A stretch of 64,000 nucleotides of DNA from Asterias amurensis (GCF_032118995.1 NC_092652.1:27235339-27299338), one strand, 5' to 3'; positions 695 to 37,617 are shown, numbered from the stretch's first letter. The notes: generated by a model from the sequence alone, not told the origin. Numbers and translations are program-made.

Positions 695-759
695 TTAGGA
701 TGATAATCCATCACTGTGTTGCGCAGGTAGAATCTCTTGAAATATGCACATGATGTACC
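695..759 (-). CDS. CCNH: cyclin H internal coding exon
   Basis: [21 protein letters not shown](K) matches human [22 protein letters not shown]. Acceptor ctttacag|GGT, donor AA|GTTTAT. The phase links exon 1198..1320 (phase 0) to exon 44..245 (1-nt start). Confidence 0.55.
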
Positions 760-3430: not shown

Positions 3431-5031
3431 ACCGAATATGTGTATAATGGCTTTAATGCACTTTCTAACGATAATCAGAGAGATATAAGATTTAAAATTT
3501 AAATAAAACAATCTTCAAAACTCAAAATCACACTGTAAGAAATGGATCTAACTTTCTTATATAATTTTATTTAAAATATATCTTAATGCTACAAAGTTTT
3601 AATAAACTGAAACAAAAGTCTGACCATCCCTATAAATTCTATGAAAAAAAAATGAAAAAAATCAATTGATCCAGTACCGATGTTAAAGAAAATCTTTATT
3701 GAAATTATTAAAGTTTTGAAGGTTGCATGTCTGAAGACGAAGATCAGTCATCCCTCAGACCTTCAGATCTTGGTCTTCCAGGGCTGGACTACAAAAATGT
3801 TTAACAGACTTCTCTCAATACATTAGAACTTTAGGTTTGAATTGAGTATTTTTTCTCAAGAGTTATACAAAATAAGACACAACCATTCAAAATCTTAAAG
3901 CTGCATATAGGCACTACCTGGATTTTTCAAAGCAGTGAAAATGCAAATGTTTTCATAATTATTTTAACCACCTCAAAACACCAGACCATCCCACAAACAT
4001 TTCCTGCATATAGTTACATGATAATTATTAAAACAAAATATTGCAAATATATATCTCAAACTGTCCTACTTACAATATATCTATACATTTCTAACATTGT
4101 TAAGTTCACATCTGATGTCTTTTTTATAATAAAACAAACATAAATAAATTCACAAATCTCCCACTCTTATTATTGGCTTCTACATACAGACGTCTTATCT
4201 AATTACCTGACTGATAATCACACTCAAACATAGTCATAACTATTATCATTATATTTTACCACAATCCTCTTGTAGATTTAGTAATCTTATAAATTTTGTT
4301 TAAAAAAAACTTTCAAGCCAAAAATAATTATATTTACAAACCAACTCCTTCTGAAAGCCTCAATATAAATTCTTAACTCTCTGTATGAAACACCATTGTT
4401 GAAGGGATGTTGAACAGTCACTTAAAATTGATGAACGAAAACACAATGTCTCGTTGTTATGGATACAAGCCTTTATATTTTGAGAAATAATCACTTAATA
4501 TTCAAATCAACCAAAAACTATTACTTACCGGTAATATTATTTCCAAACGAAATAGATTTCTTTTCTACATGAAAAGGTATGTCAGTTTGAAGTTATAAGA
4601 GTAGTTTAAGAAATGTTTGCAAGAAATAAAATGGTGAGAATGAATTTGCATATACTTTCTCTTCAGAAATTGCTATTTTAGTAACGTGCACAACTGAAGT
4701 AAAACTGACAAGGATTGTTATTTTCCAGTGGTGTACACTAAAGTATATAACACAATCACGGAAGCTATTCAAACTGGGCTTAATTTCATGGCTCTACTCC
4801 CCATAACCCCCTAATCAGCGCTTACAAAAGAAGAAATACTCAGTGCAGACATTTTTGCTAGTGGGCATGTTCAAATCACAATGCAAAACATTGTTTTCAT
4901 ACACAGCTAGTGCAGTAATTTGGTGCTTACACTATAAGCGGACAAAAGTGACTGTAAGCGCAGTAGTCCAATGTAAGCAGAGCCATGAATTTAGCCCTGG
5001 TGTCGTCACAATCCCTTAACTCTCACACTTA

Positions 5032-5172
5032 CTAATTTCCGCTTGAACTTTTGCTGCACCATTCCAAGAAGTAAACATTACCAAGTTTGTCTCCACAGAT
5101 AAATTCACTGCATTCTGGGATTGGTGAGGTCGTTACCGTAGTAATAGGCGCTTGGCAATAGAACTGACCCAC
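5032..5172 (-). CDS. TEP1: TEP1 terminal coding exon including the stop codon
   Basis: [46 protein letters not shown] vs human C-terminus ..LQLAVGDVQGNVYFLNWE*. Stop TAG at 5032..5034. Confidence 0.7.
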   Translation of the reverse strand: MGQFYCQAPITTVTTSPIPECSEFICGDKLGNVYFLEWCSKSSSGN

Positions 5173-8100
5173 CTAAAGATAAATGAAGATAAAGAACTTA
5201 AATTGTAAAATAATAAATAATAATTACTACAATTACAATACTTGTAAAGTGCATTTAAAAATTTGCAAATTTTAAGATCATTGATTATTGAAAATTAAAC
5301 ATTACCTGTTTCAAGTTCTTACGAGACCACAACTTGAGGGCGCTATCTTCTGATGCAGTGCAGATGACATCGTCACAGACAGCTAGGTCATTCACTCCAT
5401 CTGTGTGAACCTAGAAATAAATAAGAAAATAGCGTTAATGTTACAACAGCTTACCAACCAAAGCACTGATGGTTTAAATGCTAAAATCTTGTTTTGACGT
5501 TTCGGCCCGAGCAGAGTTTTTCTAGAAAGTTTTTCGGAAATCAAGAGACTTCTCATTTCTGAAACAAACTATCCTGCTTTTGAACTACTACTTAGGCGAA
5601 AGGTGGAAAGTCGGCCAGGACTACTATCTATATGACCTACCTTTTTCTTTGATATAACTTCTTGCGTCGTGACGTCACACACTGCCAAGTATCCCATGGA
5701 GTCTACTGTTAAAACTGCTTTCTTCATTCCCTTACCGGCGTCGCCTAAACCAAGCCGCTTACCACTGCGTAACTCTACTCCAGCGCAGGCTGATACCCAG
5801 CAAGGAGGCTGGTAACCAACAACCTTCTCCTCTGGGTTCATGATGATGAATCGTGAGGCAGGGAACAACTCCTAAAACAAAATGATTAATAACATTATAA
5901 ATTGCAACTTGTGAAACTTAGGGCCTTGTCACATGAGGCACTTTACAGGCAACAAGTTCCAAGCAATCTCCAAAAAGAAAAGATTTTTTTGTCTTTCAGC
6001 ATGTTTTAACAATCACAAATTAGTTTGTCTTTATACATAAATGAGGTAATCATATTGGCTTACTGATAACCTTGAACTTTGACCCTTGCACCCAGTGTTT
6101 TAGATATCCCAGAGGATGTTCTTACCAAGTTTCTGAAGTGTTGTATCTCTCCTGCTGCAGTAGTTGCTACCATGGTGTTATCTCTTAGAATCTTCACATC
6201 TAAGATCCAATCAGGGGAGTCCTTCTCATCTCTAGACAAAAATAAGAAAAATCACAAAAGAGTTTGTTTTCACAATCTTCCCATCGATGGAATTTAGAAA
6301 ACTCACACAAGGGGATTTAAACACTAAGCTGGCAACAGAAAATCTCTCTCATACAAACATTGGTTTAATGTCTATGATTATGACTTGCACCAATCTAGAA
6401 ATTATGATTCAGTAACTAGACGACAATACTTATAAATATATTTTTGGGTTGCAGAATACAAACAAGTACTTCACACAACTGTGCAGTCTTTCCAGTGAAC
6501 AAAATGGCCGGTACACAAAAGCATCAACAATGTTAACAGTTTAAAGGCACTGGACACTATTGGTAATTACTCAAAATAATTGTTTGCATTCAAACTAACT
6601 TGGCAACGAGCAATGGAGAACTTTTGATAGTATAAAACATTGAAAACATTGACACAGCTCCCTCTGAAGTAACGTAGTTTTTAAGAAAGAGGTAATTTCT
6701 GACTCAAATATTAAAAGACTTTAGACCTGAAGCCTTTTTTAGGCATCTGAAAGCAGAAAAATTTGTGCAACAAGGTTTTTTTCTTTCTTCCATTATTCTC
6801 TTGCAACGTTTGTGACCAATTGATAAGTCGAAATGTTCACAGGTTTATTATTTGATGCATTATGTTGGGATACACCAAGTGAGGATACTGGTCTTTGACA
6901 ACTACCAAACATGTCCGATGTCTTTAAGAATGAAGAGGTTTTGTAATACCTTTTGTAGATTGCTCGTAGTTTGCCGGAGTCACACTTGAATGAGCATACC
7001 ATGGCTGCCCAGTGACCTGTATAAAGGTTATCCCTCAAAGGGTCATAGGTCATACATGTGATTGGGCTCTTCTCATAACCTTCAGTCTGCATACTTTTCC
7101 TCTGTCTGTAAAAAGTAGTATTTTTCCCGAAGATTAGAAATGATGTTAAATTACTCAAGTTCAGTGTTCTCAGAACTGGGCCCAGTTTCATGGGTCGGCT
7201 TACTGTCAAATTCTGTATTTGCAATCACTATTCTTCGCTTACAGGGCAAGCGCCAATTTCTGCGCTAGATGTGTAAGCGAAGTTTCGTAGAACATGCACA
7301 CACACAAGCAATAATTCCCTGCTAACCTGTGAACTTTGCTTGATGTAAACTCAGAATTCCCTGCTTACATAATCATTGATTCTTTGATACGGTAAGCATT
7401 GATTCTTTGCTTCCAGTAAGCAGGGATTTCTGAGCTTATGGTAAGCGTTGATTCTTCGCTTGCGGTAAGCATTGATTCCCTGCTTACATGAGAATTGATT
7501 CTTTGCTTTCAGTAAGCACTGATTCTTTGCTTACGGTAAGCATTGATTCTTTGCTTACAATAAGCATTGATTCTTTGCTTATGGTAAGCATTGAATCTTT
7601 GCTTACGGTAAGCATTGATTCTTTGCTTATGGTAAGCATTGATTCTTTGCTTATGGTAAGCATTGAATCTTTGCTTACGGTAAGCATTGATTCTTTGCTT
7701 ATGGTAAGCATTGATTCTTTGCTTATGGTAAGCATTGAATCTTTGCTTACGGTAAGCATTGATTCTTTGCTTATGGTAAGCATTGAATCTTTGCTTACGG
7801 TAAGCATTGATTCTTTGCTTATGGTAAGCATTGATTCTTTGCTTACGGTAAGCATTGATTCTTTGCTTACGGTAAGCATTGATTCTTTGCTTACGGTAAG
7901 CAGAGCCATGAAATTGGGCTCAGGAAAGAGAGGAGAAAAGAGAAGAAAACTGAAAGAGTTATTGATCTTCAGAAATAAAACTCACTGTACTCTCCACGCA
8001 GTCATGGGTGGGGTTGGGGCGTCAATATCCCACACGGTGACAATACCATTGTCAGACCCCAAAGCAAACCGGGTGTCACTCAAGAAGCATACAGCATTGA

Positions 8101-11100
8101 TGGCCTTATCCATTAACTGATGGCAAAAACCAGAAATATAGATAAGAAACTTCAATCTCAATTAAATAGTTAATAGCCTGATGTTTCAACCCTAGCAGTA
8201 TTCTAGCCTTTGAGAAACACTCTGCTTGGTTCGATATGTCAGGCCATTACTTTTTGCATTTATACCTTTTGGTTGGTAAGCAGATTGCAAAAGCTGTTTC
8301 TATTTTCTCAGAAGTTGCATGAGCTACACAAACAGGCACTGTGCACAGTGTTTAAAACACAGGATTCTTTTAATACAACACAAAATGTACAGAAATACAA
8401 TGTTCTTCTTATGGACAAGTGATGATTAAACAAACTTAGTCACGTTTAATTTGCCATTATTTTGCAGAATTTTAAAATCAATTGAAAATAGGGTGCACGA
8501 CTTTGTGGGTGTGTTTTTCTTTTTAGGTTACCTTGTTTGAGAAGACAACCTTTGGTAGAGTCAGTGAGGTAGACTTCTTCTCAGGCATCTTCCAGACCAT
8601 TACTTCACCATTCCTTCAAAAATAAAATACAAGAAGTTATACAAAAGTGCTGAAAATTTTAACATAAAACTTATATAAGCTAACGTCATTCACGTCTAAA
8701 GGTTAGAGAAAACTATGGATGACTACTTTAAAAGTCTGAAACTGGGATCCAGATCTTACGAGTATCATCAGGCTGGTAAAATATCAACTTATCAAATGAA
8801 TTTTCTACAAAACACAGCCAATACTCACGTAAATTGTTTTTACTTTTCGACTAGTATCACTAGTGATCATCAGAACGAGGCACCAGTCCCACCAGTTTCC
8901 TGCTACAGCTACTTGATGGTGGTTAGGCCAATTGTGGCAGTAGTAAATGGCACCACCAACCGACTGGTTGTGCCTCGTTCTGAGGATGACTATTGATTAT
9001 ACTAGTTGAAACGTAAACGAAATTTACGTAAGTAATGGCTGTGTTTTGTAGAAAATTTGATTGATAAGTAGATCTTACGAGGTACATTGAAATGATAGCG
9101 TTCCAACCTTTTGACAACCCCTTTGATATAGATTTCAAGGAGCTTTTGGGAATTCTAATAAGATTAAGCAATATCCTCAGAGCTAGAGAGGTAGATCAAA
9201 GAGCTATACTTTTTTGTTTTGAGAAAAATATAACATTTTATACCAGGAAGACTTTAAAAAGTCTGAGTTTCAGATAAAAGTCTGAAATTTCTCATCCCTG
9301 AACTAAACACGCTCCGTTTTGCAGGCTTGGAATTTCATCTTTGAAAGGGCAAGGCCATTTTTATTTTGCAAAGGGCACTTCCGTTGGACAATCTTAAAGG
9401 AACACGTTGCCTTGGATCGGACGAGTTGGTCTATAAAAAGCGTTTTTTAACCCTTTTTATAAAATGCATATGGTTGGAAAGATGTTTTAAAAGTAGAATA
9501 CAATGATCCACACAAGTTTGCCTCGAAATTGCGTGGTTTTCCTTTTACTGTGCGAACTTACACGGTAGGCCATTTATGGGAGTCAAAAATTTGACTCCCA
9601 TAAATGGCCGACCGTGTTAGTCGACGAGGTAAAAGGAACACCGTGCAATTTCGAGGCATGTTTGTGTGGGTTATTTTATTCTACTTTTACAACGTCTTTC
9701 TACCTATATGCATTTTATAAAAAAACAGTTACAAATACTTTTGAAAGACCAAATCGATCGATCCAAGGCAACATGTTCCTTTAAAGTCTATGGGAACTTT
9801 TGAAGGGGCACCAAGGCCAAGACCAGGGGCAACAGGGGCTATGCCTCCTTGGCCTTTGTGTAATTCGAGGCATGATCTTGTAGACCAGGTCCCAATTTCA
9901 TAAAGCCTGGTAGCACAAATACTTGCTAAGCACAAAACAACACTTGCTTAGCAAAAACAGCTTAACAGCCAGAACACCATTATCTATGCTGTTACTGGTA
10001 CCCTTGTCATTTCTTGCTCAGCCAAGAAACTTGCTTCAACAGAACCTTCTACTTTACATCTTTATGAAATTGAGCCCTGATATTGACTTGTTTGCTTACC
10101 TGCTCGCAGAGATGGCGTACGTTGCTTTAAGGGAATACGCAGCACATGTAACCTCACCATTATGACGAGCAGAAAGGACCTGAGCCTCCAACTATTAACA
10201 CAAATCAAATACAATCAGTAAGATTTTCTTGTCAACAAATTTGGCTGTTGTGATCTAACCAGTCATTGAACAAGATCTAGACAGTTGGGTTGGTGTAGTG
10301 GTATCTTTCCTAGCCTTCCAAATCTAGGACCCGCGTTCAAATCCCACCAGAGGCACTCCATGCATTAGGTTTCAGTGCCTGCCTAACTGCGTGGGTTTTC
10401 AATGCAATAAATCTCTGGGGTTTTCTCCCCACTCAAAACTTCCTCGTCTTCTCTCCACGAGGTTCTTGACTAGTATAGAGATTAAGTTCAGAATTAATAA
10501 ATAAATAAATAAAAGTACTGGGTCCAATTTATTACATTATAATGTAATAATATATTATTATAAATAAGTCTGGGTTTGCTCATAACTTGTTCAGTGACTA
10601 GCCAGCAAAACCAATTAACTTTAAATTAAATGGGATACTTTTCATCCCTGAGCTAGTCACCCAGACCACTTGGAGACTGAAATCTAACTGGCATTTGGCC
10701 AGCAGTCCGCTGTTAAGAGAGAGCACTGTAAGCACAACAAAATAATGCTTACCAGAATATGTTACCAGCCAAAATACCTTGGCACATGTATCATCTGTGA
10801 CTGGCATCCCGCGAAGCAGGAAATCATTAAGCAATAATTTCTGCTTAAGCAGCTCTTTGAAAATTATGCACTGAATAGAATGGAAGAATCAAGTCTTACC
10901 TTCGGAGTCCAGAACTTCATTGTTTTATCATGTGACCCTGTGATCACATGACCTTTGCTTGATACAGCTACGGCCACAACGCTATCGGAGTGTCCACTCA
11001 TAGATGACATCTCATTGCCCTAAAAAAGGAAAATGGAGAAAAATATGCAATTACTGCCATTTTAAGAAGACAATCTATTGTTCTGTAACAAATCTGAAAA

Positions 11101-29100: not shown

Positions 29101-32100
29101 ACTTGACGACAAAACTCTCCAGTTCTTCCCATCCTGTCCCCTCCTCGGTGTAATCTTGTCCTAGGATGATTAAGTTATCGATGTGGACGCGATCCCGGAG
29201 AGCATCGTAGAGAGATGTCATGCTCAGTTTGCTCGGTGGAGCAGTATAGTAGTTGACGTCATCCCCATCTACAGCCTGAAGTTTTTATAAAATGCATGAA
29301 TCTCAAAATTTACTCACATGGAATTTATTTCTAAAATTTTCAATCTCAAACAATACTTTAAACTGTTCAATATGTTCACAAATTTTGCAGGTTTAAAGCA
29401 ATAGAAAACAATACCTATGCAAGGTGGGTAGAGTGATAGTCATTGTCGTCCATTATCATGCAGCGATTAAGGTAACTTTTAGAGAAAAGAAAATTGTGTT
29501 TTTTTCTTTTTTTTCTTTTTTATCTAGCTTTGTTTTTGTACACAGAGCTTAGAGGCTGTTTTGCGGCAATACTGCCCTTGATAAGTTCCTTTATTTATAA
29601 CTACACAATTCTGAAAGTAGCACAGAAACACCAACTCTTCTTTGATTTACCTGAGCATATGCCACAACACTCTTGATATTATCTAAGATGGTACCCTTCT
29701 CCAGTTCAATGACCCTCTGGTTATTGACCCCATAAGCAGTCAGTAGACAATCCTCGCAGGAATGCTTACACATCAATCCTAGAAGGATGGCCATTTCTCT
29801 CAACTGTAAATAAACAAACAAAATCAAATATTCTCTTTACAAACAGGAAGTGAAGAAAATCTCACTTTAATCAAAGTGTCTGTAATGCGCTGTGCACGAT
29901 GCGTAATCCAAAATCCTATAAAAAACCTGCAAAATGAAGAAAAAATGCCAAGCAATTTACATAACTTTTAGGGATAATGAAGTAAGCACAATGGATACAT
30001 GGGATTGTGTGTTGCTTGGTGTGTACATGTACTGTCATGTTTACGCGTTGCCATAACGCACTGCCAGTGCATATATATTGCCATGCATTGTAAAAATGCT
30101 GTTAAAGATATAATGGGCATCTGAACTGCACAAGTGTCTTCTAAACTTCTCAATGCAGAGTAAAGGCCATGTCAGAATCAGTGACTGTGGCTTGATCGTC
30201 ACGTGAACAGGCAGTGAAGCTTATAGTCCCCATAGCAACAGTTGCAGCCATAGCCACAGTCGCCAAACATACTGAGAATTTGACTCAATCAAGATTTGTT
30301 GGTGGTCAATATTGGACACACTTTGAAAAGAAGTCAGAGTTTACAAACCTTTTCACAGTAAGATGAGCCAGTCCAGCCAAAGGTGTCCATCTTGGGTCCA
30401 ACATCACAGTAGATATAAGTCTTCCCACGGATTGGCTTGACATTGTGACGTGTGGAGATCTTTACTGCTGTATCCAAGGCTTTGCGATACCGAGACAGCA
30501 ACTCTTGTGTATATTTGATTTCCCTAAAAAAGGAATCCATTTCAATCTGTTAGTATTTGGTTTGCGGTAACACCATGTGTTTATCTACTTGCCAGGTAGA
30601 GTTTGTTCTTTAGCGAACTATCTTGCTATATATTCTACTACCACAGAGTAGATTGTTCTAAAAAGAACCGTCTTGCTATTTAACTACTACCTGGGTGGAA
30701 GTAGAAAATCGGCTGAGGTTATTAATACTGACAGTGTCTCATTAGCTTGGAGCTTGTGTGGCTCAAATTAAGTGAGAAGGGACACTAAGTTTCAAATTAG
30801 GCAGCTATGGTTTTTCAGAACGCAGTACGCCTTCGGCTAAGAGCACTGCATGAACACTTATTCACAGCTACAGATGTCTTGATCAGCCGTTTTAAACCTG
30901 ACTAAACAGTCATGTGACCTCCTTTTAACCAATAGGACTTCTTAATCAAACTGTGGTATATCAGTTATCGGACATAGTTTGTAAATTCTCAACTGAGTTT
31001 CATGTTAGTAATCGATTAACCTTATATCAATGATGCATACCAAAGCAGCATACCTTAAAGAGCCAAAAACATTTGCCGTACTTACTTTGGCTTTCCTACT
31101 TTTCGCTTTCCTTGTCCTGCACTTTGGCGTCCACCCCTTCCTCGACCACGACCTCGACCACGCCCTTGCTGGCCACCACGGCCACGCCCTCTACCAACAT
31201 TCACACTTGGCTCTGCCGGAGTTTCAACTTTGCACAAACAAAGAAAACATCATTCATGATAATTTGGTTTTGTCAGTCCTTTCATATTGATGGATATGCA
31301 GCAGTTTATTAGACAGATGATGAAAACAATAGTAGGCATTTATCAGGCACTTTTCAACATTGTATCAAAGAGCCTCACACTATTAATACAGCCTGTTCAT
31401 GCAGCACCAGTAGCTAAATTGAGGTTGATAATTATTCACATCAAATCTGTACCCTCACGTGCACTATGATATCCTAGGTGATGAGAAGCAATACTAGTCA
31501 AGTGTTTTGCCCCAGAACACATGTGTCTTTTTGATCAGGATTTTAACCCACACTCTGATAACTCAGCCTTTAGAACCTGATTTTCCAGACCACTCCACCA
31601 AGATGAGCAATGATATCCAATAATTCTGGCCAACTACATGTATCTCAACCAATGCACAATTTTAGAAAGATACATGGAAAACAGTTTCAAACAGTGATGC
31701 TATATAGACACTCAAGTAATCAACACTTACTTCCTTCGGATTGCTTCAGATTTAGTTCCATAGTGTCCAGTACGTCGTATGCTGAGAAGAAGCGTAATGG
31801 AAACTGCTTGCTGTTAATCACCGTTCGCTCATCGGTAAGTTTACGGATAATCCATGCCTGGTACTTGGGCCCGACACCGGCCACCGTCATGTTACGCAAG
31901 TTTCTCAGCATGGCCATAAACGGAAGCTTCTTATGATCTGTAATTTATAAGTTCAGAAAGATCCCAACAATAAGAATAATAATAATGGACATTTGTAAAG
32001 CGCCATATCAGTTAGATAGAAATACACTCCTGAAAAAGAACTTTGCTAATAATGGTACTTTAAGGAACTGGACCCTATTGGTAATTACTCAAAATAATTG

Positions 32101-35100
32101 TTAGCATACAAAATTACTTGGTAACGAGCAATGGAGAGCTGTTGATAGTATAAAACATTGTGAGAAACTGCTCCCTCTGAAGTAACATAGTTTTTGAGAA
32201 CGAAGTAATTTCTCACTCAAATAATTAAAGACCTCGGCTGAAGCCTTTTATTATGCATCCAAAGCACACAAAGTAATGCAACAAGGGCGTTCTTCTTTCA
32301 TTATTCTCTTGCAACTGCGATGTCCAGTTGAGCTCAAACTTTCACAGGTTTGTTATTTTATGCATGTTGGGATACACCAAGTGAGAATAATTTTCTTTGA
32401 CAATTACCAAAGTGGATGTTGAATGGAACAAAACAAACAAAAGGAATTCTTAAGAGTTTAAATAAACTTGTCTGACCTATAAGTTGCTCCCAAGTAGTGG
32501 CTTTGTTTCCTGTTAAAGATATCTGTGTTTCCCAGGTCTCTGGTGTTGGTAGTCTCATTCTCTTGCCAGCACGGTCTGGGTCCCAAGTACCTGGGAGGCG
32601 TGTCTTGTAGAAAGACTCCAGATCTTCTGGGTACCTGGTTATTACCAAAGAAAGAGGGTCAAAACACATCCCACAAAAAAACACCAACAAAACCCACAAA
32701 AAACAGACATATAATGTGATTTGAGGCATTGCATGGTGTATGTTTAAAACTATCAAGCGCCAGTGTTTTTCAGCGGAGAAAGACAGTAAATTGTCAAAAT
32801 TGTCATGCGCTTTTGATTACTTTTGTGTGAAGGGTGTTGGAATGTAAATCAGAAATTATTTACAAATCATTATAATTATCTAAGAAAGTTTCCTTAAGGT
32901 AAACCTAAATCTGACTTATTGAAGAAGTAAATGAAGAAGGGAATCTAACTTTTTGCCAATGAGGCCCATGACACTCTCTACTGGTTCCATGATGTGTAGT
33001 TTTCTAATGAGCTGCTTAAGAGTGTAATGATCACATAGATCGACATCATCATCGCTATCAGCATGGATGTCATCTTCAGCTTCTTCCTTCTTAGCTCCAC
33101 CCGTCTCATCCTCACTCCCTCCTTCCTCACCATCCCCGTCTCCGTCTGCCTCCTCATCATTCTCCTGTTGTGGTTTCTTCTTTTTGATGTATTTCTTCTT
33201 AGATGCCTTCTTTTTTGTCTTGTTGTATTTGCCTGTGAGATGAGATTTAGGGAAGTAGGATTTTAAAACTTTGCATTTTGCAAGTATAACTAGAGAGGTT
33301 TGCAAGAACACTATGTTAAAATCTCTTTTTAGTATAGGTTCTGAAAGAAACGGTGGTTAACTATCGACTCAACATTTCAATCAGTATGCTCTGATCGTCT
33401 TCAGGAGAATGCTGAGTAACATTTTGAAGTGCACTGTTTTTGTTTTATAACCACAACTGATCAGCAGGATCAGCAAAATCTGGGGGTCAAATATTCAGCC
33501 CCCTTTCCTTCCTGATAAACGGCATCCCCATGTTTTCTTAGTAACAAACATAGATCATATTTGAATTTGGTTTGACACAGATGTACCAAACTTGGACCAA
33601 GCTTTCTTGGATTCTATTCTCTTACCCAACTGATAAGTATCAAAGTCAGGAAACTTCGCAACCATCACTTTACGAAGAGCAGAAGGTAGCGATTTATAGC
33701 TCAGGTTTTTGTCGTGGAATGTCTGCGGAGAAAAGAAAGTACAAAATCTTTTAATACCAATATGAAAAACTGTTCTAATTGTGTTGCACCTTCAGAGTTT
33801 TTAGAGAAGCATCGGCTAAAAACACCCTCTCGCTCAGCTGACTGACTGATGCAAGGAAATTTGCCACTGAAAGCACCCCATGAGGTAAAAAAATATGGTC
33901 AAATCAAACTTACAAGATACAAGTCAGCTACAGATGCCCAATCAGATGGGAGAACGATGGACTTCTGGAAGTATTTCTTCATGTAAGGTCGACATTCACG
34001 ATGATTGGCAGCCAGGGCCAGCAGAAAGTTGGCAGCAGTTCGGATGTTTAATTCACGTCGAGTATACAAAGCAACCTACGAAGGGGAAATATGGAAGAAA
34101 TAAGGGTTAATTTAGGATGAAGAAATGAACAAATATGATTTGGTTTCTCTCTCTCTTTAGCAACTTTAGGGTGGTCGGGTTGGCTTCTTCTTATCATGTC
34201 CACACACACTAGATATTGTGTTTCAGCCAGAACTGGACACAGCTCCTAGCAAAATCGTACTCTGCAAGGTCCTCAATTTTGCATTCTTGCTCCAGTAGGG
34301 GCCATCTCAGGAGGTGCTCCATAGTTTGTGGCTCTGTCTCACATATACAGGTTGGCGTAGAAGTGTCTTTTCTCATCTTCCACCTCTAGGACCCCTGTGC
34401 AAATCCTGCAGGGGGCATTATGTGGATTGGGTTTTCATTCCCTACCATCTCACTGCATGTTTTCCTCCTACGTACATCTAAAACTAACACTTCCGTCTTT
34501 GTCATCTCCAGAGTTCTTGGCTAATAGGTGATTAAGTTCACTTTTCTAAAAGTCCCTGGCTTCACAACCAGAATTAATAACTAATGTTATGCCTCATAGT
34601 TTTCAGTTCTTCTACAGTAAAGATAAGTATTTCTTCTAATGAATATTATCTCTTGAAGTTTTAGTAAACCCTTTGAACCAACCTTAAGGATGAATTCAGG
34701 ATCTGATAGGATGACTGGGTTGGCTTCTTTAATCAGAGCTGTTCTTGTTGCATCCTTTCTTGATTCAAGATGAGGACTGTGAATTAATGCCGAGCTGATC
34801 ATGTTTATAAAGGATCTCTAATCGATGAGAAGGAAAGGAAGAAACAACTTATTTACTTCATTGAATCATTAGAATAAAAGTGGAAAATGTTCAAATAATG
34901 TTTTTTTTTCATTTCAATCTAAAAAAGAGTTGGGCCTACACGCAGAACAAAATGCTTTAGGCCTAGGCCTATATATTTGAATGAAATAACATTCAAATAC
35001 ATTTTCTTTTTTAAGTTTGAAAATGTGAAATGAAAAAAAGGAATGGCGAAATTGTAAAAGATCTAGCCTTGTTTTAATATTAGATTTGGAAGGGGTGGTT

Positions 35101-37617
35101 TATGAACTTTTTATGACAATAATAATAATAATAATATCGAAGTCTTATATAGCGCACGTATCCACCAAACAAGGTGCTCAAGGCGCTGAGTATATATACA
35201 AACTTTCAGAAAGATAGGTTATTGCAGTGATGAATTCTGAGACCCAATTATTTAGCACCTTATAAGGGTTTACAAGGCGCTACGGCGCATTAAGCAGCCA
35301 CAACCAGGAACACCGGGGCGAACCCCTTCTCTTTTCGATAAGTGCACTGGGTTCTTTTACATGCGTTACACAACACATGGGACCAACGGCTTTACGTCCC
35401 TTCCGAAGGACGAAGCAATGGTTAAGTGTCTTGCTCAAGGACACAGTGTCACGGCTGGGGATGACATCAGGGACACAGTTCACTAACTTGAAAAAAATGT
35501 TGCTTAGCAAATGTTGTATTATACACTTTCAGGAGACACTTTTTGGGAGCCAGAGTTACAATATATCCCTTGGCATTTTGGCTGGTAGTTTGTCTTTCGC
35601 CTGCTTAGCAAATTTGAAGCTCTTTTCAAAGATTCCGCTTTGGCTGTGGCTTAGGTTGTGTCTGGCTATGGCTTAGGTTGTGTCTGGCTATGGCTTAGGT
35701 TGCGTGTGGCTATGGCTTAGGTTGTGTCTGGCTATGGCTTAGGTTGTGTCTGGCTATGGCTTAGGCTGTGTCTGGCTATGGCTTAGGTTGTGTCTGACTG
35801 TTTATATATGTACCAAACATTTCAAAGTAACTGAAGGAGCATAATATAAGCCTTTTAGCTGAACAGGCCCAATTTCATAAAGTCTGTGCGCATTAAAATT
35901 TGCTAAGCACAGACAAATTTTGCTTAACAAAAAACTGGTTACCAGCCGAAATTCCATAGAGTTTACATAAATGCAACTGGTGCCCCACTCATTTTATGCT
36001 TAGCAAAGAAAGTTGCCAAGTAGTATTTTTCGCTTAAAGCCATTGGACCCTTTCGGTACAGGAAAAAAAAAAAAAGTTCACAGATTTACAAATAATTTAC
36101 AGGGTTTACAGAAGGTAATGGTGAAAGACTTCTCTTGAAATATTAGTCCATGAAATGCTTTACTTTTTGAGAAAACGGTAAAACAATATAAATTCTCGTT
36201 AACGAGAATTACGGATTTGTTATAAACACATGTCATGACACGGCGAAACGCGCGAAAACAGGAGTGGGTTTTCCCGTTATTTTCTCCCGACTCCGATGTC
36301 CGATTGAGCCTAAATTTCCACAGGATTGTTATTTTATATATAAGTTGTGATACACGAAGTGTGGGACTTGGACAATAGTGTTTACCGAAAGTGTATAATG
36401 GCTTTAAACGAAATAGGACCATGTTGGTTTGGTTTGAACAAGATAAGGTGATTATTACACCATACATTGTAATCAAGTGTGTTGTAATGCATGCATCCAT
36501 GGTGAATCATCAAGCGCAAGGCCAGGCTAGTCTGTCACCCTGGACATCATAGCCTGGCATTACATGAATTATAGCCTGGCTACATATGAATTATAGCCTG
36601 GCTATCATACTAATGAATCAATGGCTGATGTAAGAGGTTGACACACAGCTCAAACTAGTGTACAATAAATGAATCATGGAGCAGAGCTTCTTGACAAATT
36701 ATTGTAGTTACTTCGATCGGGAGTAAAAATTAAAATTGTGAATGTTAAGATTTGTATTGGCAAAATTTATTAAATAAAAATGAACAAAAGTTTGGCTGAT
36801 CAACATAATATAAAAAGAAAAGTAACATTAGAGTTTTCAGCATGATCAATCCTGCTTATCAAATTTAAACAAGTGAAATAAAACAAAAGTGAACAAGTTT
36901 TCTCTGAAGATTTACCTTCTTTGAGTTGATATCTTCTGATGAAATCATCAACGACAACAATTCAGGATTTACAGTTTCAAATGAAGTCTCGTCATCCTGT
37001 CCCCAAAACTGATCATCTCTCTCTTTGACATCAAAATGAAAATCATAATCAGGAATTTCAAAGTTCCCCACTGTCTCATCAATAAGAACCTGTCTGTTCT
37101 CTGCAACAGCCTTCTTAGGGAGGTGAGAGGGTTGCTGAAACCCAGCTGGCTTGACTTGTCTTTGCTGGGAAGGCTTTATCAAGGTGTTAGTAACTGTAGG
37201 TTTCTTTAAGGAGCTAGAGCCAAGACTGGTCGACTGGTTGATGAGAGTAGACTTTGTGGAGAGGGTCGTTTTGTAAGAGCCTCCTTGAAGACTGCTGGTT
37301 TTAGACGTGCTGAGCAAAGAGGATGTGAGAGGTGTCAACTTGGATCCAAGAAGGAGTCGATTACTCTGAAGGCTGAGAGATTCTTGCTTCAGATTTAGCG
37401 AAACTGGCTTGAAGCTTGAGTAAGACCCTGTCGCATTCTTATCCTTGGAAGGGGCATTCCTTGATCCAATCTGAGTAGATTTACTGCTCACTGACTGTAG
37501 GAGAGGATTAACTAATGAAGAAGAGAGCCGAGGGCCTGAGGTGAGGCTACCAATGCAGCTCTGTCTTGATGACGTCAGAAGAGGGTTGTCTAAACGTGAC
37601 TTGAGTTCAGTCTTCAT
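5032..37617 (-). CDS. TEP1: TEP1 (telomerase-associated / vault protein 1) orthologue, whole-gene span with about 47 coding exons. Domain order: N-terminal low-complexity region, TROVE, vWA-like, DUF4062, NACHT, WD40 array
   Basis: Multiple exons give strong collinear matches to human TEP1. Examples: [31 protein letters not shown] vs [26 protein letters not shown]; DUF4062, [34 protein letters not shown] vs [34 protein letters not shown]; NACHT P-loop, [15 protein letters not shown] vs SLVTGQSGQGKTAFL; C-terminus, [15 protein letters not shown] vs LAVGDVQGNVYFLNWE*. Splice phases are consistent across all exon junctions except E8/E9. Confidence 0.85.
5306..5410 (-). CDS. TEP1: TEP1 exon 46 (WD40)
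   Basis: [35 protein letters not shown] vs human VTALHVLPELLVTASKDRDVKLWERPSMQ. Acceptor tttctag|, donor CAG|GTAATG. Confidence 0.7.
5641..5871 (-). CDS. TEP1: TEP1 exon 45 (WD40)
   Basis: [77 protein letters not shown]. Acceptor ttttag|, donor AAG|GTAGGT. Confidence 0.6.
6540..6920. mobile_element. copy of the about 380-bp MITE/SINE-like repeat family (see 32040..32420)
   Basis: Sequence identity by eye across most of its length to 32040..32420. Confidence 0.6.
7230..7905. repeat. 24-bp satellite-like tandem array, about 27 units (consensus ggtaagcattgattctttgcttac), in a TEP1 intron
   Basis: Direct reading. Perfect 24-bp periodicity creates spurious long ORFs on both strands (7484..7909 minus, 7488..8120 plus). 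Confidence 0.9.
7991..8116 (-). CDS. TEP1: TEP1 exon 44 (WD40)
   Basis: [42 protein letters not shown]. Acceptor ccatcag|, donor AGA|GTACAG. Anchored to the stop codon of the plus-strand ORF at 8118..8120. Confidence 0.55.
8532..8613 (-). CDS. TEP1: TEP1 exon 43
   Basis: (R)[27 protein letters not shown]. Acceptor tttttgaag|, donor AAG|GTAACC. Confidence 0.5.
9395..9785. repeat. long imperfect palindrome / foldback element with about 190-bp arms and a perfect 42-bp palindromic core at about 9567..9608
   Basis: Core ggccatttatgggagtcaaaaatttgactcccataaatggcc. The outer arms are reverse complements, for example aaaggaacacgttgccttggatcg and cgatccaaggcaacatgttccttt. Confidence 0.8.
10100..10191 (-). 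CDS. TEP1: TEP1 exon 42 (WD40)
   Basis: [30 protein letters not shown]. Acceptor ttaatag|, donor AG|GTAAGC. The phase links exon 41 (phase 0) to exon 43 (1-nt start). Confidence 0.5.
10270..10510 (+). mobile_element. tRNA-derived SINE (tRNA-like head gggttggtgtagtggtatc..ggacccgcgttcaaatccc, A-rich tail)
   Basis: tRNA-like A/B-box head. The body ..tctctggggttttctcccc..gattaagttcagaattaataaataaataaa.. is shared with copies at 16540..16760 and 34330..34590. Confidence 0.6.
10900..11019 (-). CDS. TEP1: TEP1 exon 41 (WD40)
   Basis: [40 protein letters not shown]. Acceptor ttttttag|, donor AAG|GTAAGA. Confidence 0.6.
11326..11513 (-). CDS. TEP1: TEP1 exon 40
   Basis: (D)[62 protein letters not shown]. 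Acceptor ttgtacag|, donor CAG|GTAAAT. Confidence 0.55.
11860..11998 (-). CDS. TEP1: TEP1 exon 39 (WD40)
   Basis: [46 protein letters not shown](G). Compare human SSDGSVGLWDPESGQRLGQFLGHQSAVSAV.. and GTLKVWDHQGVELTSIPAHSGPISHC. Acceptor aaacag|, donor G|GTAGAA. Confidence 0.65.
12500..12607 (-). CDS. TEP1: TEP1 exon 38 (WD40)
   Basis: [36 protein letters not shown]. Donor AGT|GTGAGT. Confidence 0.6.
13387..13515 (-). CDS. TEP1: TEP1 exon 37 (WD40)
   Basis: [43 protein letters not shown]. Acceptor ccatag|, donor TTG|GTAAGA. Confidence 0.55.
13933..14035 (-). CDS. TEP1: TEP1 exon 36 (WD40)
   Basis: (S)[34 protein letters not shown]. Acceptor cttccag|, donor ATG|GTAAAC. Confidence 0.55.
14253..14419 (-). 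CDS. TEP1: TEP1 exon 35 (WD40)
   Basis: [55 protein letters not shown]. Acceptor ttattccag|, donor AAAAG|GTAAAT. Confidence 0.6.
14759..15022 (-). CDS. TEP1: TEP1 exon 34 (WD40)
   Basis: [88 protein letters not shown] vs human VQVWSGSLGRPRGHLGSLSLSPALSVALSPDGDRVAVGYRADGIRIYKI... Donor GAG|GTTAGT. Confidence 0.7.
15638..15736 (-). CDS. TEP1: TEP1 exon 33 (WD40)
   Basis: [33 protein letters not shown]. Acceptor ctgcgcag|, donor AAG|GTATGG. Confidence 0.6.
15880..16190. repeat. about 80-bp tandem repeat, 3 to 4 copies, each headed by a G7-G11 run
   Basis: Unit (g)n cagattggtagctgtattggtcattccttacacagctagcgcagtcattcggggcttgcaaattcagtcgtgaatgt repeated at about 15895, 15975 and 16075. A related fragment lies at 4880..4990. 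Confidence 0.8.
16321..16440 (-). CDS. TEP1: TEP1 exon 32 (WD40)
   Basis: [40 protein letters not shown]. Acceptor ttcag|, donor CAG|GTATGT. Phase 0-0. Confidence 0.6.
16540..16760 (+). mobile_element. SINE copy (same family as 10270..10510), partially 5'-truncated
   Basis: Shared body ..attctctggggttttcttccc..ctggcttcacaatcagaataaataaatgaaa. Confidence 0.5.
16793..17012 (-). CDS. TEP1: TEP1 exon 31 (WD40)
   Basis: ..[63 protein letters not shown] vs ..[46 protein letters not shown]. Confidence 0.75.
17150..17258 (-). CDS. TEP1: TEP1 exon 30 (WD40); 5' boundary approximate
   Basis: (A)[35 protein letters not shown](R). Donor AG|GTACAT. Confidence 0.45.
17733..17802 (-). CDS. TEP1: TEP1 exon 29 (WD40)
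   Basis: [23 protein letters not shown](G). Acceptor cgtag|, donor G|GTAAGA. Phase links to exon 30. Confidence 0.45.
18207..18302 (-). CDS. TEP1: TEP1 exon 28 (WD40)
   Basis: [32 protein letters not shown] vs AVAFSTNGQRAAVGTANGTVYLLDLRTWQ. Acceptor ttccag|, donor AAG|GTGGGT. Additional small exon(s) may lie between 18302 and 18901. Confidence 0.55.
18901..19122 (-). CDS. TEP1: TEP1 exon 27
   Basis: [45 protein letters not shown].. vs ..FLRQQASILSQYPRLLPQQAANQPLDSPLCHQ. Acceptor tatttacag|, donor CAG|GTTGGT. Confidence 0.6.
19398..19455. repeat. 15-bp microsatellite-like tandem repeat (cataataatattgat x4)
   Basis: Direct reading. Confidence 0.8.
19501..19781 (-). CDS. TEP1: TEP1 exon 26 (3' end ambiguous between 19507 and 19501)
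   Basis: (G)[67 protein letters not shown].. vs ..EALGDLPYHLLQSGNRGLLSKFLTNLHVVAAHLELGLVSRLLEAHALYASS. The LPYHL motif is conserved. Confidence 0.6.
20034..20146 (-). CDS. TEP1: TEP1 exon 25
   Basis: (S)[38 protein letters not shown] vs ..RTAAKRCYGKRPGLEDTAHILIAAQ. Acceptor tctacag|, donor G|GTAAGG. Confidence 0.55.
21101..21371 (-). CDS. TEP1: TEP1 exon 24
   Basis: (E)[89 protein letters not shown]. Phase-consistent with exons 23 and 25. Donor AG|GTGAGA. Confidence 0.55.
21592..21724 (-). CDS. TEP1: TEP1 exon 23
   Basis: [45 protein letters not shown] vs VSERLRTLPATVPLLLQHILSTLEKEHGPDVLPQALTALEV. Confidence 0.65.
22260..22352 (-). CDS. TEP1: TEP1 exon 22
   Basis: [31 protein letters not shown] vs MRLLLVKRESGRPLYLRLVTDHLRLFTLYEQ. 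Donor CAA|GTATGT. Confidence 0.75.
22693..22869 (-). CDS. TEP1: TEP1 exon 21
   Basis: [59 protein letters not shown] vs CVHLVLSVSSDAGLGETLEQSQGAHVLALGPLEASARARLVREELALYGKRLEESPFNNQ. Confidence 0.75.
23090..23230 (-). mobile_element. short interspersed repeat with tRNA-like end (gatttgaacccacgacctttgcaatt); second copy at 24410..24640
   Basis: ccatgtgtgttagcactatatactc..gatttgaacccacgaccttt.. occurs at both loci, both in TEP1 introns. Confidence 0.5.
23250..23400 (-). CDS. TEP1: TEP1 exon 20 (NACHT Walker B region)
   Basis: (N)[50 protein letters not shown] vs SLVWELQQRLLPKSAESLHPGQTQVLIIDGADRLVDQNGQLISDWIPKKLPR. Confidence 0.65.
23642..23817 (-). CDS. TEP1: TEP1 exon 19 (NACHT)
   Basis: [58 protein letters not shown] vs SLVSALQAPDGAKVAPLVFFHFSGARPDQGLALTLLRRLCTYLRGQLKEP. 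Confidence 0.65.
24162..24344 (-). CDS. TEP1: TEP1 exon 18 (NACHT Walker A / P-loop)
   Basis: [61 protein letters not shown]. The GKSGCGKT motif is the Walker A P-loop. Donor ATG|GTTAGT. Confidence 0.75.
24410..24640 (-). mobile_element. second copy of the interspersed repeat seen at 23090..23230
   Basis: ccccacaccgatgtgtgttagcactgtatactc..ggattcagacccacgacctttaccattc..ccccgatgcaaatttaacacc. Confidence 0.5.
25026..25146 (-). CDS. TEP1: TEP1 exon 17
   Basis: (G)[40 protein letters not shown] vs [38 protein letters not shown]. Confidence 0.7.
25590..25715. repeat. 42-bp tandem triplication; each unit carries a consensus splice donor (reverse complement GG|GTAAGTTCC) at the 3' end of TEP1 exon 16
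   Basis: Units ggaacttacccatcaa[a/t][g/a][a/t]acttctagtccactgcctttaag at about 25592, 25634 and 25676. The copy at the highest coordinate supplies the exon 16 donor. Confidence 0.8.
25677..25790 (-). CDS. TEP1: TEP1 exon 16 (3' end lies inside a 42-bp tandem repeat)
   Basis: (K)[38 protein letters not shown] vs [36 protein letters not shown]. Donor GG|GTAAGT is present in each repeat unit. Confidence 0.55.
26290..26532 (-). CDS. TEP1: TEP1 exon 15 (DUF4062 C-terminal part)
   Basis: [70 protein letters not shown] vs [69 protein letters not shown]. Confidence 0.75.
26986..27162 (-). CDS. TEP1: TEP1 exon 14 (DUF4062 N-terminal part)
   Basis: (R)[58 protein letters not shown](R) vs [59 protein letters not shown]. 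Confidence 0.8.
27754..27830 (-). CDS. TEP1: TEP1 exon 13
   Basis: [25 protein letters not shown] vs IPPPPGKTGVQSLRPLEEDTPSPLAPVSQQGW. Acceptor ttttttag|, donor AG|GTCAGA. Confidence 0.55.
28169..28313 (-). CDS. TEP1: TEP1 exon 12
   Basis: (S)[48 protein letters not shown] vs STDLNPNDVTLSGCTDAILKFIAEHGASHLLEHVGQMDKIFKI. Acceptor cttacag|, donor CAG|GTAGGA. Confidence 0.65.
28540..28810 (-). mobile_element. tRNA-derived SINE, reverse orientation (..ggtattccaacccacactctgtgaataac..)
   Basis: The reverse complement shows a tRNA-like head. Related reverse-orientation fragments lie at 19290..19390 (ggtattcaaacccacactctgctgattag), 31480..31590 and 48640..48800. Confidence 0.45.
29034..29275 (-). 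CDS. TEP1: TEP1 exon 11
   Basis: [80 protein letters not shown]. This corresponds to human ..VPVDRVILLGQSMDDGM... Donor AG|GTAAGA. Confidence 0.65.
29651..29803 (-). CDS. TEP1: TEP1 exon 10
   Basis: [51 protein letters not shown] vs ALLLIGMMITRAEQVDVVLCGGDTLKTAVLKAEEGILKTAIKLQAQVQ. Acceptor tatttacag|, donor CAG|GTAAAT. Confidence 0.7.
30349..30546 (-). CDS. TEP1: TEP1 exon 9 (vWA-like part of TROVE module); 5' boundary uncertain
   Basis: [47 protein letters not shown] vs KYDGEMLNRYRQALETAVNLSVKHSLPLLPGRTVLVYLTDANAD. Donor GAAAAG|GTTTGT. The phase mismatch with exon 8 implies an undetected small exon between 30550 and 31085. Confidence 0.5.
31086..31227 (-). CDS. TEP1: TEP1 exon 8 candidate (Arg-Gly-rich insert)
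   Basis: Phase-compatible with exon 7 (2-nt start). Encodes [47 protein letters not shown]. Acceptor ..gtgcaaag|, donor AAA|GTAAGT. No human counterpart for the RGG run, so confidence is lower. Confidence 0.4.
31731..31937 (-). CDS. TEP1: TEP1 exon 7 (TROVE)
   Basis: (D)[68 protein letters not shown] vs human [65 protein letters not shown]. Confidence 0.75.
32040..32420. mobile_element. about 380-bp MITE/SINE-like interspersed repeat (tttaaaggcactggacactattggtaattactcaaaataatt...cacttggtgtatcccaacat). Other copies: 6540..6920, 24770..24990, 25230..25350, 27290..27660, 41640..42020, 22900..23050
   Basis: Copies in both orientations share blocks (ggtaattactcaaaa, agcaatggagagctgttgatagtataaaacattgtgagaaa, ctcacttggtgt.tcccaa). 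Repeat-derived ORFs [13 protein letters not shown] / [14 protein letters not shown] recur at 6793..7224 and 32358..32756. Confidence 0.6.
32477..32634 (-). CDS. TEP1: TEP1 exon 6 (TROVE)
   Basis: (K)[52 protein letters not shown] vs YPSNLQLFSRSRLPGPWDSSRAGKRMKLSRPETWERELSLRGNKASVWEELI. Confidence 0.75.
32950..33232 (-). CDS. TEP1: TEP1 exon 5 (basic/acidic low-complexity, then [13 protein letters not shown]..)
   Basis: (G)[34 protein letters not shown] vs KYNPRKHRAKRH..RFTLKKLVQRLHIHKPAQHVQALLGYR. Coordinates anchored to the ORF track. Confidence 0.65.
33626..33722 (-). CDS. TEP1: TEP1 exon 4
   Basis: [33 protein letters not shown] vs KNKLVPLPACLRTAMTDKFAQFDEYQLAK. Acceptor ccgcag|, donor G|GTAAGA. 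Confidence 0.65.
33914..34075 (-). CDS. TEP1: TEP1 exon 3
   Basis: [54 protein letters not shown] vs ASLYARQQLNVRNVANNILAIAAFLPACRPHLRRYFCAIVQLPSDWIQVAELYQ. Acceptor cgtag|, donor CTT|GTAAGT. Confidence 0.7.
34330..34590 (+). mobile_element. SINE copy (same family as 10270..10510)
   Basis: ..ctaggacccctgtgcaaatcctgcagggg..ggctaataggtgattaagttcac..ctggcttcacaaccagaattaataactaatg. Confidence 0.5.
34683..34817 (-). CDS. TEP1: TEP1 exon 2
   Basis: ..[14 protein letters not shown] vs human ..ELALLEPEFILK. Acceptor cgattag|AGA, donor AAG|GTTGGT. Confidence 0.55.
35100..35520. repeat. interspersed repeat family (aataataataat..gtcttatatagcgcacgtat..caaggcgctgagt..caaactttcagaaagataggttattgcag); related copies at 22400..22570, 21900..22060 and 19130..19215
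   Basis: Shared blocks visible by eye. Confidence 0.5.
35640..35805. repeat. 22-bp tandem repeat, about 8 units (ggcttaggttgtgtctggctat)
   Basis: Direct reading. Confidence 0.85.
36050..36430 (+). repeat. about 380-bp interspersed repeat with internal palindrome ctcgttaacgagaat; other copies at 3040..3430 (minus) and 46150..46520 (plus)
   Basis: Shared: aaagttcacagatttacaaataa.ttacagggtttac.gaag..atggtga.agacttc.cttgaaatatta..ccatgaa...ctcg.ta.cgagaat..aacacatgtcatgaca.ggcgaaa.g.gc..aaaca.g.g...ttttcc.gttattttctcccgactccgatg.ccgattg. Repeat-derived ORFs at 3054..3254 and 36078..36500. Confidence 0.7.
36916..37617 (-). CDS. TEP1: TEP1 exon 1 (start codon; S/T/L-rich low-complexity N-terminus)
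   Basis: ORF-track ATG at 37617; donor AAG|GTAAAT after ..SSEDINSKK. 234 codons. No vertebrate-type 30-aa N-terminal repeats are present. Confidence 0.6.

Follow-up and report, generated by a model that had tools for sequence, protein, structure and literature searches.

The closest described system is human TEP1 (telomerase protein component 1, vault protein p240), whose DUF4062 domain is a TIR-like NAD+-hydrolyzing enzyme (NADase) with E1008 as an essential residue and which is active inside vault particles (bioRxiv 10.64898/2026.09.21.753143 and 10.64898/2026.05.01.722283). NADase activity has also been found in homologs from zebrafish, sponge and Dictyostelium, and most of 11 residues named in the human protein were shown to be necessary for this activity (three 2026 preprints on the human TEP1 NADase). 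TEP1 and its orthologs have TROVE and DUF5920 domains N-terminal to DUF4062, an extension not present in human NWD1, NWD2, NPHP3 and TTC41 (described in the cited work). No paper was found in literature searches for TEP1 together with an RGG (Arg-Gly-Gly) motif or for invertebrate TEP1. Here, we describe a locus in a stretch of 64,000 nucleotides from the sea star Asterias amurensis (GCF_032118995.1 NC_092652.1:27235339-27299338), referred to below as the window, whose coordinates are used throughout. The minus strand of this locus encodes what is, with a probability of about 0.92, an intact single-copy TEP1 ortholog having 48 coding exons and a product of 2665 residues.

Translation of the minus strand from 37.6 to 5.0 kb produced a long run of open segments with TEP1 motifs, starting ..DPEFILK... 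A crude join of these segments matched TEP1 homologs carrying Pfam TROVE, DUF5920 and DUF4062 (best E value, 1e-232), and a search with the C-terminal half detected long TEP1-like NACHT-WD40 proteins. Representative TEP1 homologs were retrieved with a Solemya protein (P0004) as the query. When 120 TEP1 homologs were compared with the window by tblastn, every significant match (E ≤ 1e-3) fell on the minus strand, and none lay above 34.8 kb. The exon chain was assembled with a dynamic-programming finder, utilizing splice-site and codon tables trained on 31 confident exons, and was corrected by hand from the DNA at doubtful junctions (exons 1, 4, 6, 24, 36, 38 and 44).

The curated coding sequence extends as one open reading frame from an ATG at 37617 to the end of the stop codon at 5032. 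All 47 introns are of the GT-AG type with consistent phases, there are no internal stops, and about 8 kb of coding sequence is thus free of stops and frameshifts. Introns range from 133 to 2098 bases (median, 453), and the guanine-plus-cytosine (GC) content is 0.47 in the exons versus 0.37 elsewhere (∼0.38 for the whole window). Alignment of the product with long TEP1 homologs yielded a single collinear high-scoring segment pair in each case, covering residues 760-2661 of the product with homolog P0121 and 534-2657 of the product with homolog P0122 and interrupted by small gaps only. An earlier note on this DNA had proposed a near-complete TEP1 gene of 47 exons with phase-consistent GT-AG introns. 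Its outer bounds (5032-37617), its exon 1 and an exon encoding Arg-Gly (RG) repeats agree to the base with the curated model, and its description of the introns was borne out for all 47; the exon count is 48 rather than 47, and the coding sequence is complete, from ATG to stop, rather than nearly so. A split of exon 1 proposed by the finder was rejected, owing to a donor score of −4.0 and to the open, in-frame sequence that it would have skipped. Also discarded were an acceptor at 21371 for exon 24, which added 31 residues found in no homolog, and a donor after 7000 for exon 44, as the phase 2 of exon 45 is left only by the donor after 6950.

The exons, all on the minus strand, are as follows, with the content of each and then its basis ("finder" denotes the trained exon finder, "gorilla" an alignment with gorilla TEP1, and PWM a position weight matrix).

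Exon 1, 36916..37617, residues 1-234: ATG, Ser/Thr/Leu-rich N-terminus, PDYDF, TROVE start; open frame of 234 codons, donor AAG/gtaaatct.
Exon 2, 34683..34817, residues 235-279: TROVE start, ..DPEFILK; tblastn, phase 0 to 0, acceptor weak by PWM.
Exon 3, 33914..34075, residues 280-333: TROVE; tblastn, finder.
Exon 4, 33626..33722, residues 334-365: TROVE, donor TGG/gtaagaga; read from DNA, junction YQLG/KYNK as in homologs.
Exon 5, 32950..33232, residues 366-459: insertion in TROVE, Lys-rich then acidic; DNA reading, codon log-odds 47.
Exon 6, 32477..32634, residues 460-512: TROVE, unusual donor TAG/gtcaga; DNA reading, junction EQLI/DHKKLPF as in homologs.
Exon 7, 31731..31937, residues 513-581: TROVE, ends in phase 1; DNA reading, finder.
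Exon 8, 31086..31227, residues 582-628: RG-repeat basic linker, 142 nucleotides, phase 1 to 2; splice sites read in DNA, candidate scoring.
Exon 9, 30349..30523, residues 629-687: end of TROVE profile, vWA-like start (..YRKALDTAV..); acceptor ttttttag/G needs 2 upstream nucleotides.
Exon 10, 29651..29803, residues 688-738: DUF5920/vWA-like; finder, Pfam.
Exon 11, 29034..29275, residues 739-818: DUF5920/vWA-like; finder, Pfam.
Exon 12, 28169..28313, residues 819-867: DUF5920 end; finder, Pfam.
Exon 13, 27754..27830, residues 868-892: Pro-rich linker, weakest exon, donor TAG/gtcagaag; best phase 0 to 2 candidate, 11-residue stretch aligns with primate PSPLAPISQQGW.
Exon 14, 26986..27162, residues 893-951: DUF4062/TIR-like, with F900, S903, R906, R912 and R940-W941-G942; finder, Pfam, gorilla.
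Exon 15, 26290..26532, residues 952-1032: DUF4062, with R952, C957, R974 and catalytic Glu E1006; finder, Pfam, gorilla.
Exon 16, 25677..25790, residues 1033-1070: extended TIR-like region; finder.
Exon 17, 25026..25146, residues 1071-1111: TIR-like region end; finder, gorilla.
Exon 18, 24162..24344, residues 1112-1172: NACHT, Walker A GKSGCGKT at 1162; finder, Pfam, gorilla.
Exon 19, 23642..23817, residues 1173-1230: NACHT; finder, Pfam.
Exon 20, 23250..23400, residues 1231-1281: NACHT, Walker B at 1253; finder, Pfam, gorilla.
Exon 21, 22693..22869, residues 1282-1340: NACHT end; finder, Pfam.
Exon 22, 22260..22352, residues 1341-1371: finder.
Exon 23, 21592..21724, residues 1372-1415: HTH_NWD1 winged helix; finder, Pfam.
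Exon 24, 21101..21278, residues 1416-1474: HTH_NWD1; acceptor 21278 chosen, short form CAREGLLEEEL, no homolog gap at this site.
Exon 25, 20034..20146, residues 1475-1512: finder.
Exon 26, 19501..19781, residues 1513-1606: APAF1-like helical domain; finder, Pfam.
Exon 27, 18901..19122, residues 1607-1680: helical domain end, WD40 start; finder, Pfam.
Exon 28, 18207..18302, residues 1681-1712: WD40; finder, Pfam.
Exon 29, 17733..17857, residues 1713-1753: WD40; finder, Pfam.
Exon 30, 16793..17048, residues 1754-1839: WD40; finder, Pfam.
Exon 31, 16321..16440, residues 1840-1879: WD40; finder, Pfam.
Exon 32, 15638..15736, residues 1880-1912: WD40; finder, Pfam.
Exon 33, 14759..15022, residues 1913-2000: WD40; finder, Pfam.
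Exon 34, 14253..14419, residues 2001-2055: TEP1 second propeller; finder, Pfam.
Exon 35, 13933..14035, residues 2056-2090: TEP1 second propeller; finder, Pfam.
Exon 36, 13387..13515, residues 2091-2133: TEP1 second propeller (..CHKDWVT..); hand-added, tblastn with P0121 and P0122, phase 0 to 0.
Exon 37, 12500..12607, residues 2134-2169: WD40; tblastn, finder.
Exon 38, 11860..11998, residues 2170-2215: WD40, acceptor ccaaacag/CAAGG; junction AFS/QGCVVS, compare AFSQGVVVS in P0122.
Exon 39, 11326..11513, residues 2216-2278: WD40; tblastn, finder.
Exon 40, 10900..11019, residues 2279-2318: WD40; tblastn, finder.
Exon 41, 10100..10191, residues 2319-2348: WD40, low conservation; aligns with GHNGPVTFVQ of P0121.
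Exon 42, 8532..8613, residues 2349-2376: WD40, low conservation; finder, homolog alignment.
Exon 43, 7986..8116, residues 2377-2419: WD40; tblastn, finder, homolog alignment.
Exon 44, 6950..7105, residues 2420-2471: WD40, donor AAG/gtattaca; hand-chosen from DNA.
Exon 45, 6126..6231, residues 2472-2507: finder, homolog alignment.
Exon 46, 5641..5871, residues 2508-2584: last 13-17 residues without counterpart in P0121 or P0122; finder, homolog alignment.
Exon 47, 5306..5410, residues 2585-2619: TEP1 C-terminal propeller; tblastn, finder, Pfam.
Exon 48, 5032..5172, residues 2620-2665 and stop: TEP1 C-terminal propeller; tblastn, Pfam.

Pfam analysis of the conceptual protein confirmed the series TROVE, vWA-like, DUF4062, NACHT and WD40, in the order of human TEP1, that had been read from the DNA in the earlier note; the TROVE and NACHT matches, which the note had suggested looking for, were both detected. 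The domains, by residue of the product, are listed here.

Residues 227-662: TROVE, profile positions 13-442 of 442, E = 4e-99.
Residues 691-861: DUF5920 (vWA-like, PF19334), E = 1.4e-13, 51 bits versus a cut-off of 27.
Residues 898-1010: DUF4062 (PF13271), E = 2e-18.
Residues 1157-1325: NACHT (PF05729), E = 1.7e-8, with Walker A GKSGCGKT at 1162 and LVIFLDGLD at 1253.
Residues 1372-1497: HTH_NWD1, E = 4.5e-7.
Residues 1535-1644: APAF1_C helical, E = 8e-6.
Eleven matched stretches: WD40, E = 2.3e-91.
Residues 2004-2214 (best stretch): Beta-prop_TEP1_2nd (PF25047), E = 6.6e-77, 258 bits versus a cut-off of 89.
Residues 2586-2657: Beta-prop_TEP1_C (PF25048), E = 2.3e-59, 198 bits with the full-length protein (100 bits when the C-terminal 316 residues were scanned alone) versus a cut-off of 32.

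The closest full-length representatives were proteins named "telomerase protein component 1-like" from Lytechinus pictus (46% identity over residues 7-2501) and Anneissia japonica (47%), while identity to a mammalian TEP1 (Mustela) was ∼32%. The sea star protein shares with human TEP1 the domain order, the 11 TIR-like active-site residues, the Walker A and B motifs, the C-terminal GD.LGNVYFL.W and the TEP1-specific propellers. It differs from the human protein in having two NPLL motifs and one LSLQSNRLL motif in place of the 30-residue TEP1_N repeats and in a Lys-rich and acidic insertion within TROVE; a further difference from mammalian TEP1 is the linker following the TROVE helical part, which is R/K-rich and helical-looking in mammals and RG-rich in the sea star. 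The two features singled out as special in the earlier note, the N-terminus and the RG exon, also occur in the TEP1 proteins of other animals, and the gene is therefore regarded as an ordinary TEP1 ortholog.

Alignment with gorilla TEP1, using human numbering, indicated that all 11 of the residues mutated or named in the studies of human TEP1 are identical in the sea star. Thus, F900, S903, R906, R912, R940, W941, G942, R952, C957, R974 and E1006 of the sea star correspond to F902, S905, R908, R914, R942, W943, G944, R954, C959, R976 and E1008 of the human protein.

The reading frame of exon 1 is open for 234 codons, counted from the first ATG to follow a stop. Comparison with Asterias rubens detected differences at 23 of 702 bases, with 17 being synonymous and 6 nonsynonymous, and 229 of 234 residues were identical. 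The resulting ratio of nonsynonymous to synonymous differences per site (pN/pS) of 0.107 indicates that this low-complexity N-terminus is coding and is under purifying selection. No match to Pfam TEP1_N was detected in exon 1 at E ≤ 1. Of the controls, gorilla TEP1 exhibited four repeats (E = 6e-82) and opossum TEP1 only a weak match of its second repeat (profile positions 12-23, E = 0.042), and there was no TEP1_N match in the TEP1 proteins of urchin, amphioxus, bichir or stingray. TEP1_N is a eutherian feature rather than one of the whole family, and its absence from the sea star has therefore no bearing on orthology. The sea star N-terminus looks disordered, and its composition (S, 0.23; L, 0.16) is similar to that in bivalves, amphioxus, sea urchin, rotifer and nematode (S, 0.11-0.29; L, 0.15-0.19), where xLLx motifs are recurrent. 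A BLASTP comparison of the exon 1 peptide with other TEP1 N-termini found nothing significant (best E, 0.33), and hence the resemblance is one of motifs and composition only. These results upheld the earlier description of exon 1 as Ser/Thr/Leu-rich and without the 30-residue N-terminal repeats, the difference being one from eutherian TEP1; the label of lineage-specific was not supported, as this is the usual non-mammalian condition.

The NPLL motifs are located at residues 11 and 37, and the probability of two or more arising in shuffles of the same peptide was 1e-4. Of 70 TEP1 N-termini, 15 had an NP(L/I)L motif, frequently close to the start (first 25 residues), with carriers including Lytechinus, Branchiostoma, Styela, Elysia, stingray, bichir, frog and opossum (among the homologs P0267, P0001, P0263, P0279, P0280, P0306 and P0339). 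The motif lies within the first 45 residues in sea star, urchin, amphioxus, stingray, bichir and opossum and deeper in the N-terminal region in tunicate, frog and sea slug. Opossum TEP1 has a first repeat of VLSLKNPILTQS and a second of VLSLENRILAQP (..LSLKNPIL.. and ..LSLENRIL..), and the eutherian repeat is ILSLENRCLATL; these opossum repeats suggest that NP(L/I)L may represent an old core of the eutherian TEP1_N repeat. A PDYDF motif at residues 188-192 has counterparts in urchin (PDYDF), bivalves, amphioxus and vertebrates (MPSYSL or MPSYDL).

The RG exon (31227..31086) has an acceptor, ctttgtttgtgcaaag/TTG, located after a pyrimidine tract and a donor of AAA/gtaagtac. Its product contains eight RG dipeptides within 22 residues, two of them as RGG. 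The 1.2-kb gap between exon 7 (phase 1) and exon 9 (phase 2) contained two phase-correct candidate exons passing minimal thresholds. The RG exon had scores of 3.9 for the acceptor, 5.3 for the donor and 25.1 for codons (sum, ∼34), compared with 2.5, 0.3 and 4.2 (∼7) for the other candidate. Joining exon 7 directly to exon 9 shifts the frame and leads to a stop within ∼20 codons; as skipping has this effect, the RG exon is taken to be constitutive. A short 12-nucleotide repeat accounts for only 27 of the 142 bases, indicating that the exon is not a plain microsatellite. With good splice sites, the best frame-restoring score by far and homologs having RG repeats at this place, the RG exon holds as a coding exon, as claimed in the earlier note.

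A linker between the TROVE helical part and the vWA-like part was present in every TEP1 examined, with a length of ∼45 to 90 residues (median, 55), and was basic in all of these homologs (median K+R fraction, 0.22). RG runs of at least six residues were found in 7 of 130 homolog linkers, namely, those of Branchiostoma belcheri, Solemya velum, Saccostrea cucullata, Macrostomum lignano, the amoebozoan Gocevia and two others, and the linker of Mizuhopecten yessoensis is RG-rich with shorter runs. The TEP1-like proteins of B. belcheri, S. velum, S. cucullata and M. yessoensis share with the sea star both the RG linker and an N-terminus that is rich in Ser and Leu and contains xLLx or NPLL; identity to the sea star protein, taken from the best BLASTP alignment for each, was 42 to 52% for B. 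belcheri, S. velum and M. yessoensis. These species belong to other phyla, and the bivalve proteins differ in having WW(L/I)(D/E)KKK after the RG run, which the sea star does not. Vertebrate linkers are R/K-rich without an RG repeat, as are the K/R-rich linkers of the nearest named relatives, L. pictus and A. japonica. In sequence comparison, the RG repeat is a local form of this shared basic linker, occurring in scattered lineages by retention or repeated gain, and not an insertion as had been proposed. As RG repeats are absent from Lytechinus and Anneissia, the RG form may, within echinoderms, be confined to the sea star line; the comparison with related invertebrates suggested in the earlier note thus revealed RG repeats in several phyla but not in these two relatives.

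RGG/RG motifs have reportedly been defined, by Thandapani and colleagues in 2013, as three or more RG (or RGG) units spaced 0 to 4 residues apart. The sea star linker has the spacing of a tri-RG motif and adjoins an RNA-binding module; its two RGG triplets are 11 residues apart, and it differs in this respect from a strict di- or tri-RGG box.

An equivalent gene is already known from the sister species, A. rubens, in which LR699094.1 (GCA_902459465.3) carries a minus-strand gene call of 2666 residues, adjoining DCLK and containing TROVE, DUF5920, DUF4062, NACHT and WD40. The window is collinear with this locus at a DNA identity of 91 to 95%. The two loci share synteny (a 233-residue gene and DCLK adjoining), strand relation, Pfam families and start codon, the annotated A. 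rubens coding sequence starting at the ATG equivalent to 37617.

Several repeats were observed in and around the gene. On the minus strand at 25587..25707, a 41-bp unit occurs three times in tandem (97% match) and comprises approximately the last 30 bases of exon 16 plus the GTAAGT donor. This generates three identical donors (25676, 25635 and 25594), of which only the first keeps the frame, with reading past it meeting a TAA at once; the triplication could either be genuine, producing decoy splice sites, or stem from an artefact of assembly. The intron between exons 43 and 44 contains a 24-bp minisatellite (7362..7902; 22.6 copies, 87% match) that has two open frames on the minus strand (SKESMLTV.. 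repeats) and might be taken for coding sequence. Short interspersed repeats have copies at 36024..36407 and 3082..3456 and also at ∼32380 and ∼6900. One such family also matches the A. rubens locus twice (L001, 28366..28745 and 9365..9726), and a second element (..LGVSQH.. when translated) is found immediately downstream of exons 6 and 44.

Some of these results weigh against an intact and active ortholog. Every junction is a prediction from the DNA sequence, with exon 13, the gtcaga donor of exon 6, the acceptor of exon 2 and exons 41-46 being weak by splice score or homology; the product falls one residue short of the A. rubens call (2665 versus 2666); and RNA binding, vault association and NADase activity in the sea star would be extrapolations from other species. 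The weak splice sites of exons 2, 6 and 13, and the two decoy donors placed by the triplication right after exon 16, would be in keeping with a decaying or non-functional TEP1 copy; alternatively, the locus might encode a DUF4062-NACHT-WD40 protein of the NWD1 or NWD2 kind. Either situation is very improbable given an 8-kb coding sequence free of stops and frameshifts, the pN/pS of exon 1, the intact catalytic and P-loop residues, the position of TROVE and DUF5920 before DUF4062, which is that of TEP1 and not of NWD1, NWD2, NPHP3 or TTC41, and scores above the cut-offs for the TEP1-specific propeller families. A narrower doubt concerns the RG exon, whose junctions are predicted from DNA alone, which contains a short 12-nucleotide repeat and which, due to its low complexity, has no tblastn support. 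That it is an intronic GC-rich simple repeat, open by chance and outside the mRNA, with exons 7 and 9 bridged otherwise, is nevertheless scarcely credible, as direct joining of these exons runs into a stop, the alternative candidate scores ∼7 versus ∼34, the donor (AAA/gtaagt) is preceded by an acceptor lying behind a pyrimidine tract, and homologs have RG repeats at the same position. The length of the A. rubens call argues in the same direction: a difference of one residue is indirect support for all of the modeled exons being in the A. rubens annotation, including the RG exon, as omission of 142 nucleotides would break the frame.

Acceptance of the exon chain leaves the view, following the lineage-specific label of the earlier note, that both the RG exon and the low-complexity N-terminus arose within this lineage and give sea star TEP1 a new property. 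The absence of RG from the linkers of Lytechinus and Anneissia, the small number of homolog linkers with an RG run of at least six residues (7 of 130) and the failure of TEP1_N to find anything on exon 1 are all consistent with such a view. We consider it unlikely, because amphioxus, three bivalves, a flatworm and an amoebozoan have RG repeats at this very place, because the linker is basic throughout the homologs examined and because the N-terminal make-up, with its xLLx and NPLL motifs, is common to many invertebrate and non-eutherian vertebrate TEP1 proteins. The lineage-specific label was, for these reasons, set aside for both features in favor of an intact and ordinary TEP1 ortholog.

By analogy with the described systems, sea star TEP1 would be an active STAND-type sensor and effector. 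In such a scheme, TROVE, aided by the basic RG linker, would hold a small RNA (vault RNA), NACHT would drive nucleotide-dependent oligomerization, and the TIR-like DUF4062 domain would hydrolyze NAD+. An Rfam scan of the window detected no vault RNA or other family, a result that says nothing either way on vault RNA binding. The conservation of the NADase residues in a complete invertebrate TEP1 supports the view of an ancient activity that is general among animals. Annotation of TEP1 orthologs is routine in echinoderms, and the gene as such matters little. Of wider relevance is that NPLL marks TEP1 N-termini well beyond mammals and that the basic linker repeatedly takes the RG form, which provide small hypotheses for vault biology and not discoveries. 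Tentatively, and with considerable doubt, TEP1 might be proposed to carry two undescribed conserved short elements, the N-terminal NP(L/I)L motif and the basic TROVE-to-vWA linker, the latter having an RG form in several phyla. Should they serve in docking or in contacts with RNA, they could reveal what anchors TEP1 in the vault and how its NADase is coupled to RNA binding.

Neighboring genes were observed on both sides of TEP1. A doublecortin-like kinase gene (DCLK), with DCX and kinase domains, is located on the plus strand at 46773..59582. Its largest exon (55090..56760, or 55063..56760 in a longer delimitation) has 1 mismatch in 557 residues (99.8% identity) with A. amurensis XP_071787881 and 15 mismatches in 557 (97%) with the A. 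rubens DCLK1-like protein XP_033625176, which places the window in an Asterias sea star closest to A. amurensis. Between TEP1 and DCLK, a small RAMAC/FAM103A1-like gene was recognized by eye on the plus strand at 40359..41374 (..YSDEDTFYEPYKNKGMDPPPIMENYF.., followed by a Gly/His/Arg-rich tail); the 233-residue product at the matching place in A. rubens has no Pfam match. A perfect tandem duplication of 113 bp (40227..40452, plus strand; 2.0 copies, 100%) spans the acceptor and ATG region of the first coding exon of this gene. Downstream of TEP1 and on the same, minus strand, cyclin H-like exons were detected by eye at 2..2364 (..CVYLACKIEEFNVS..LDFHLTIHNLFRPLEGFLIDIK..). At the other end of the window, an uninterrupted open reading frame of 767 residues (61698..63998, minus strand), with RNase H and integrase motifs of a Gypsy/Ty3-type long terminal repeat retrotransposon, runs off the end; the local GC content of this region is 0.46, above the window mean.

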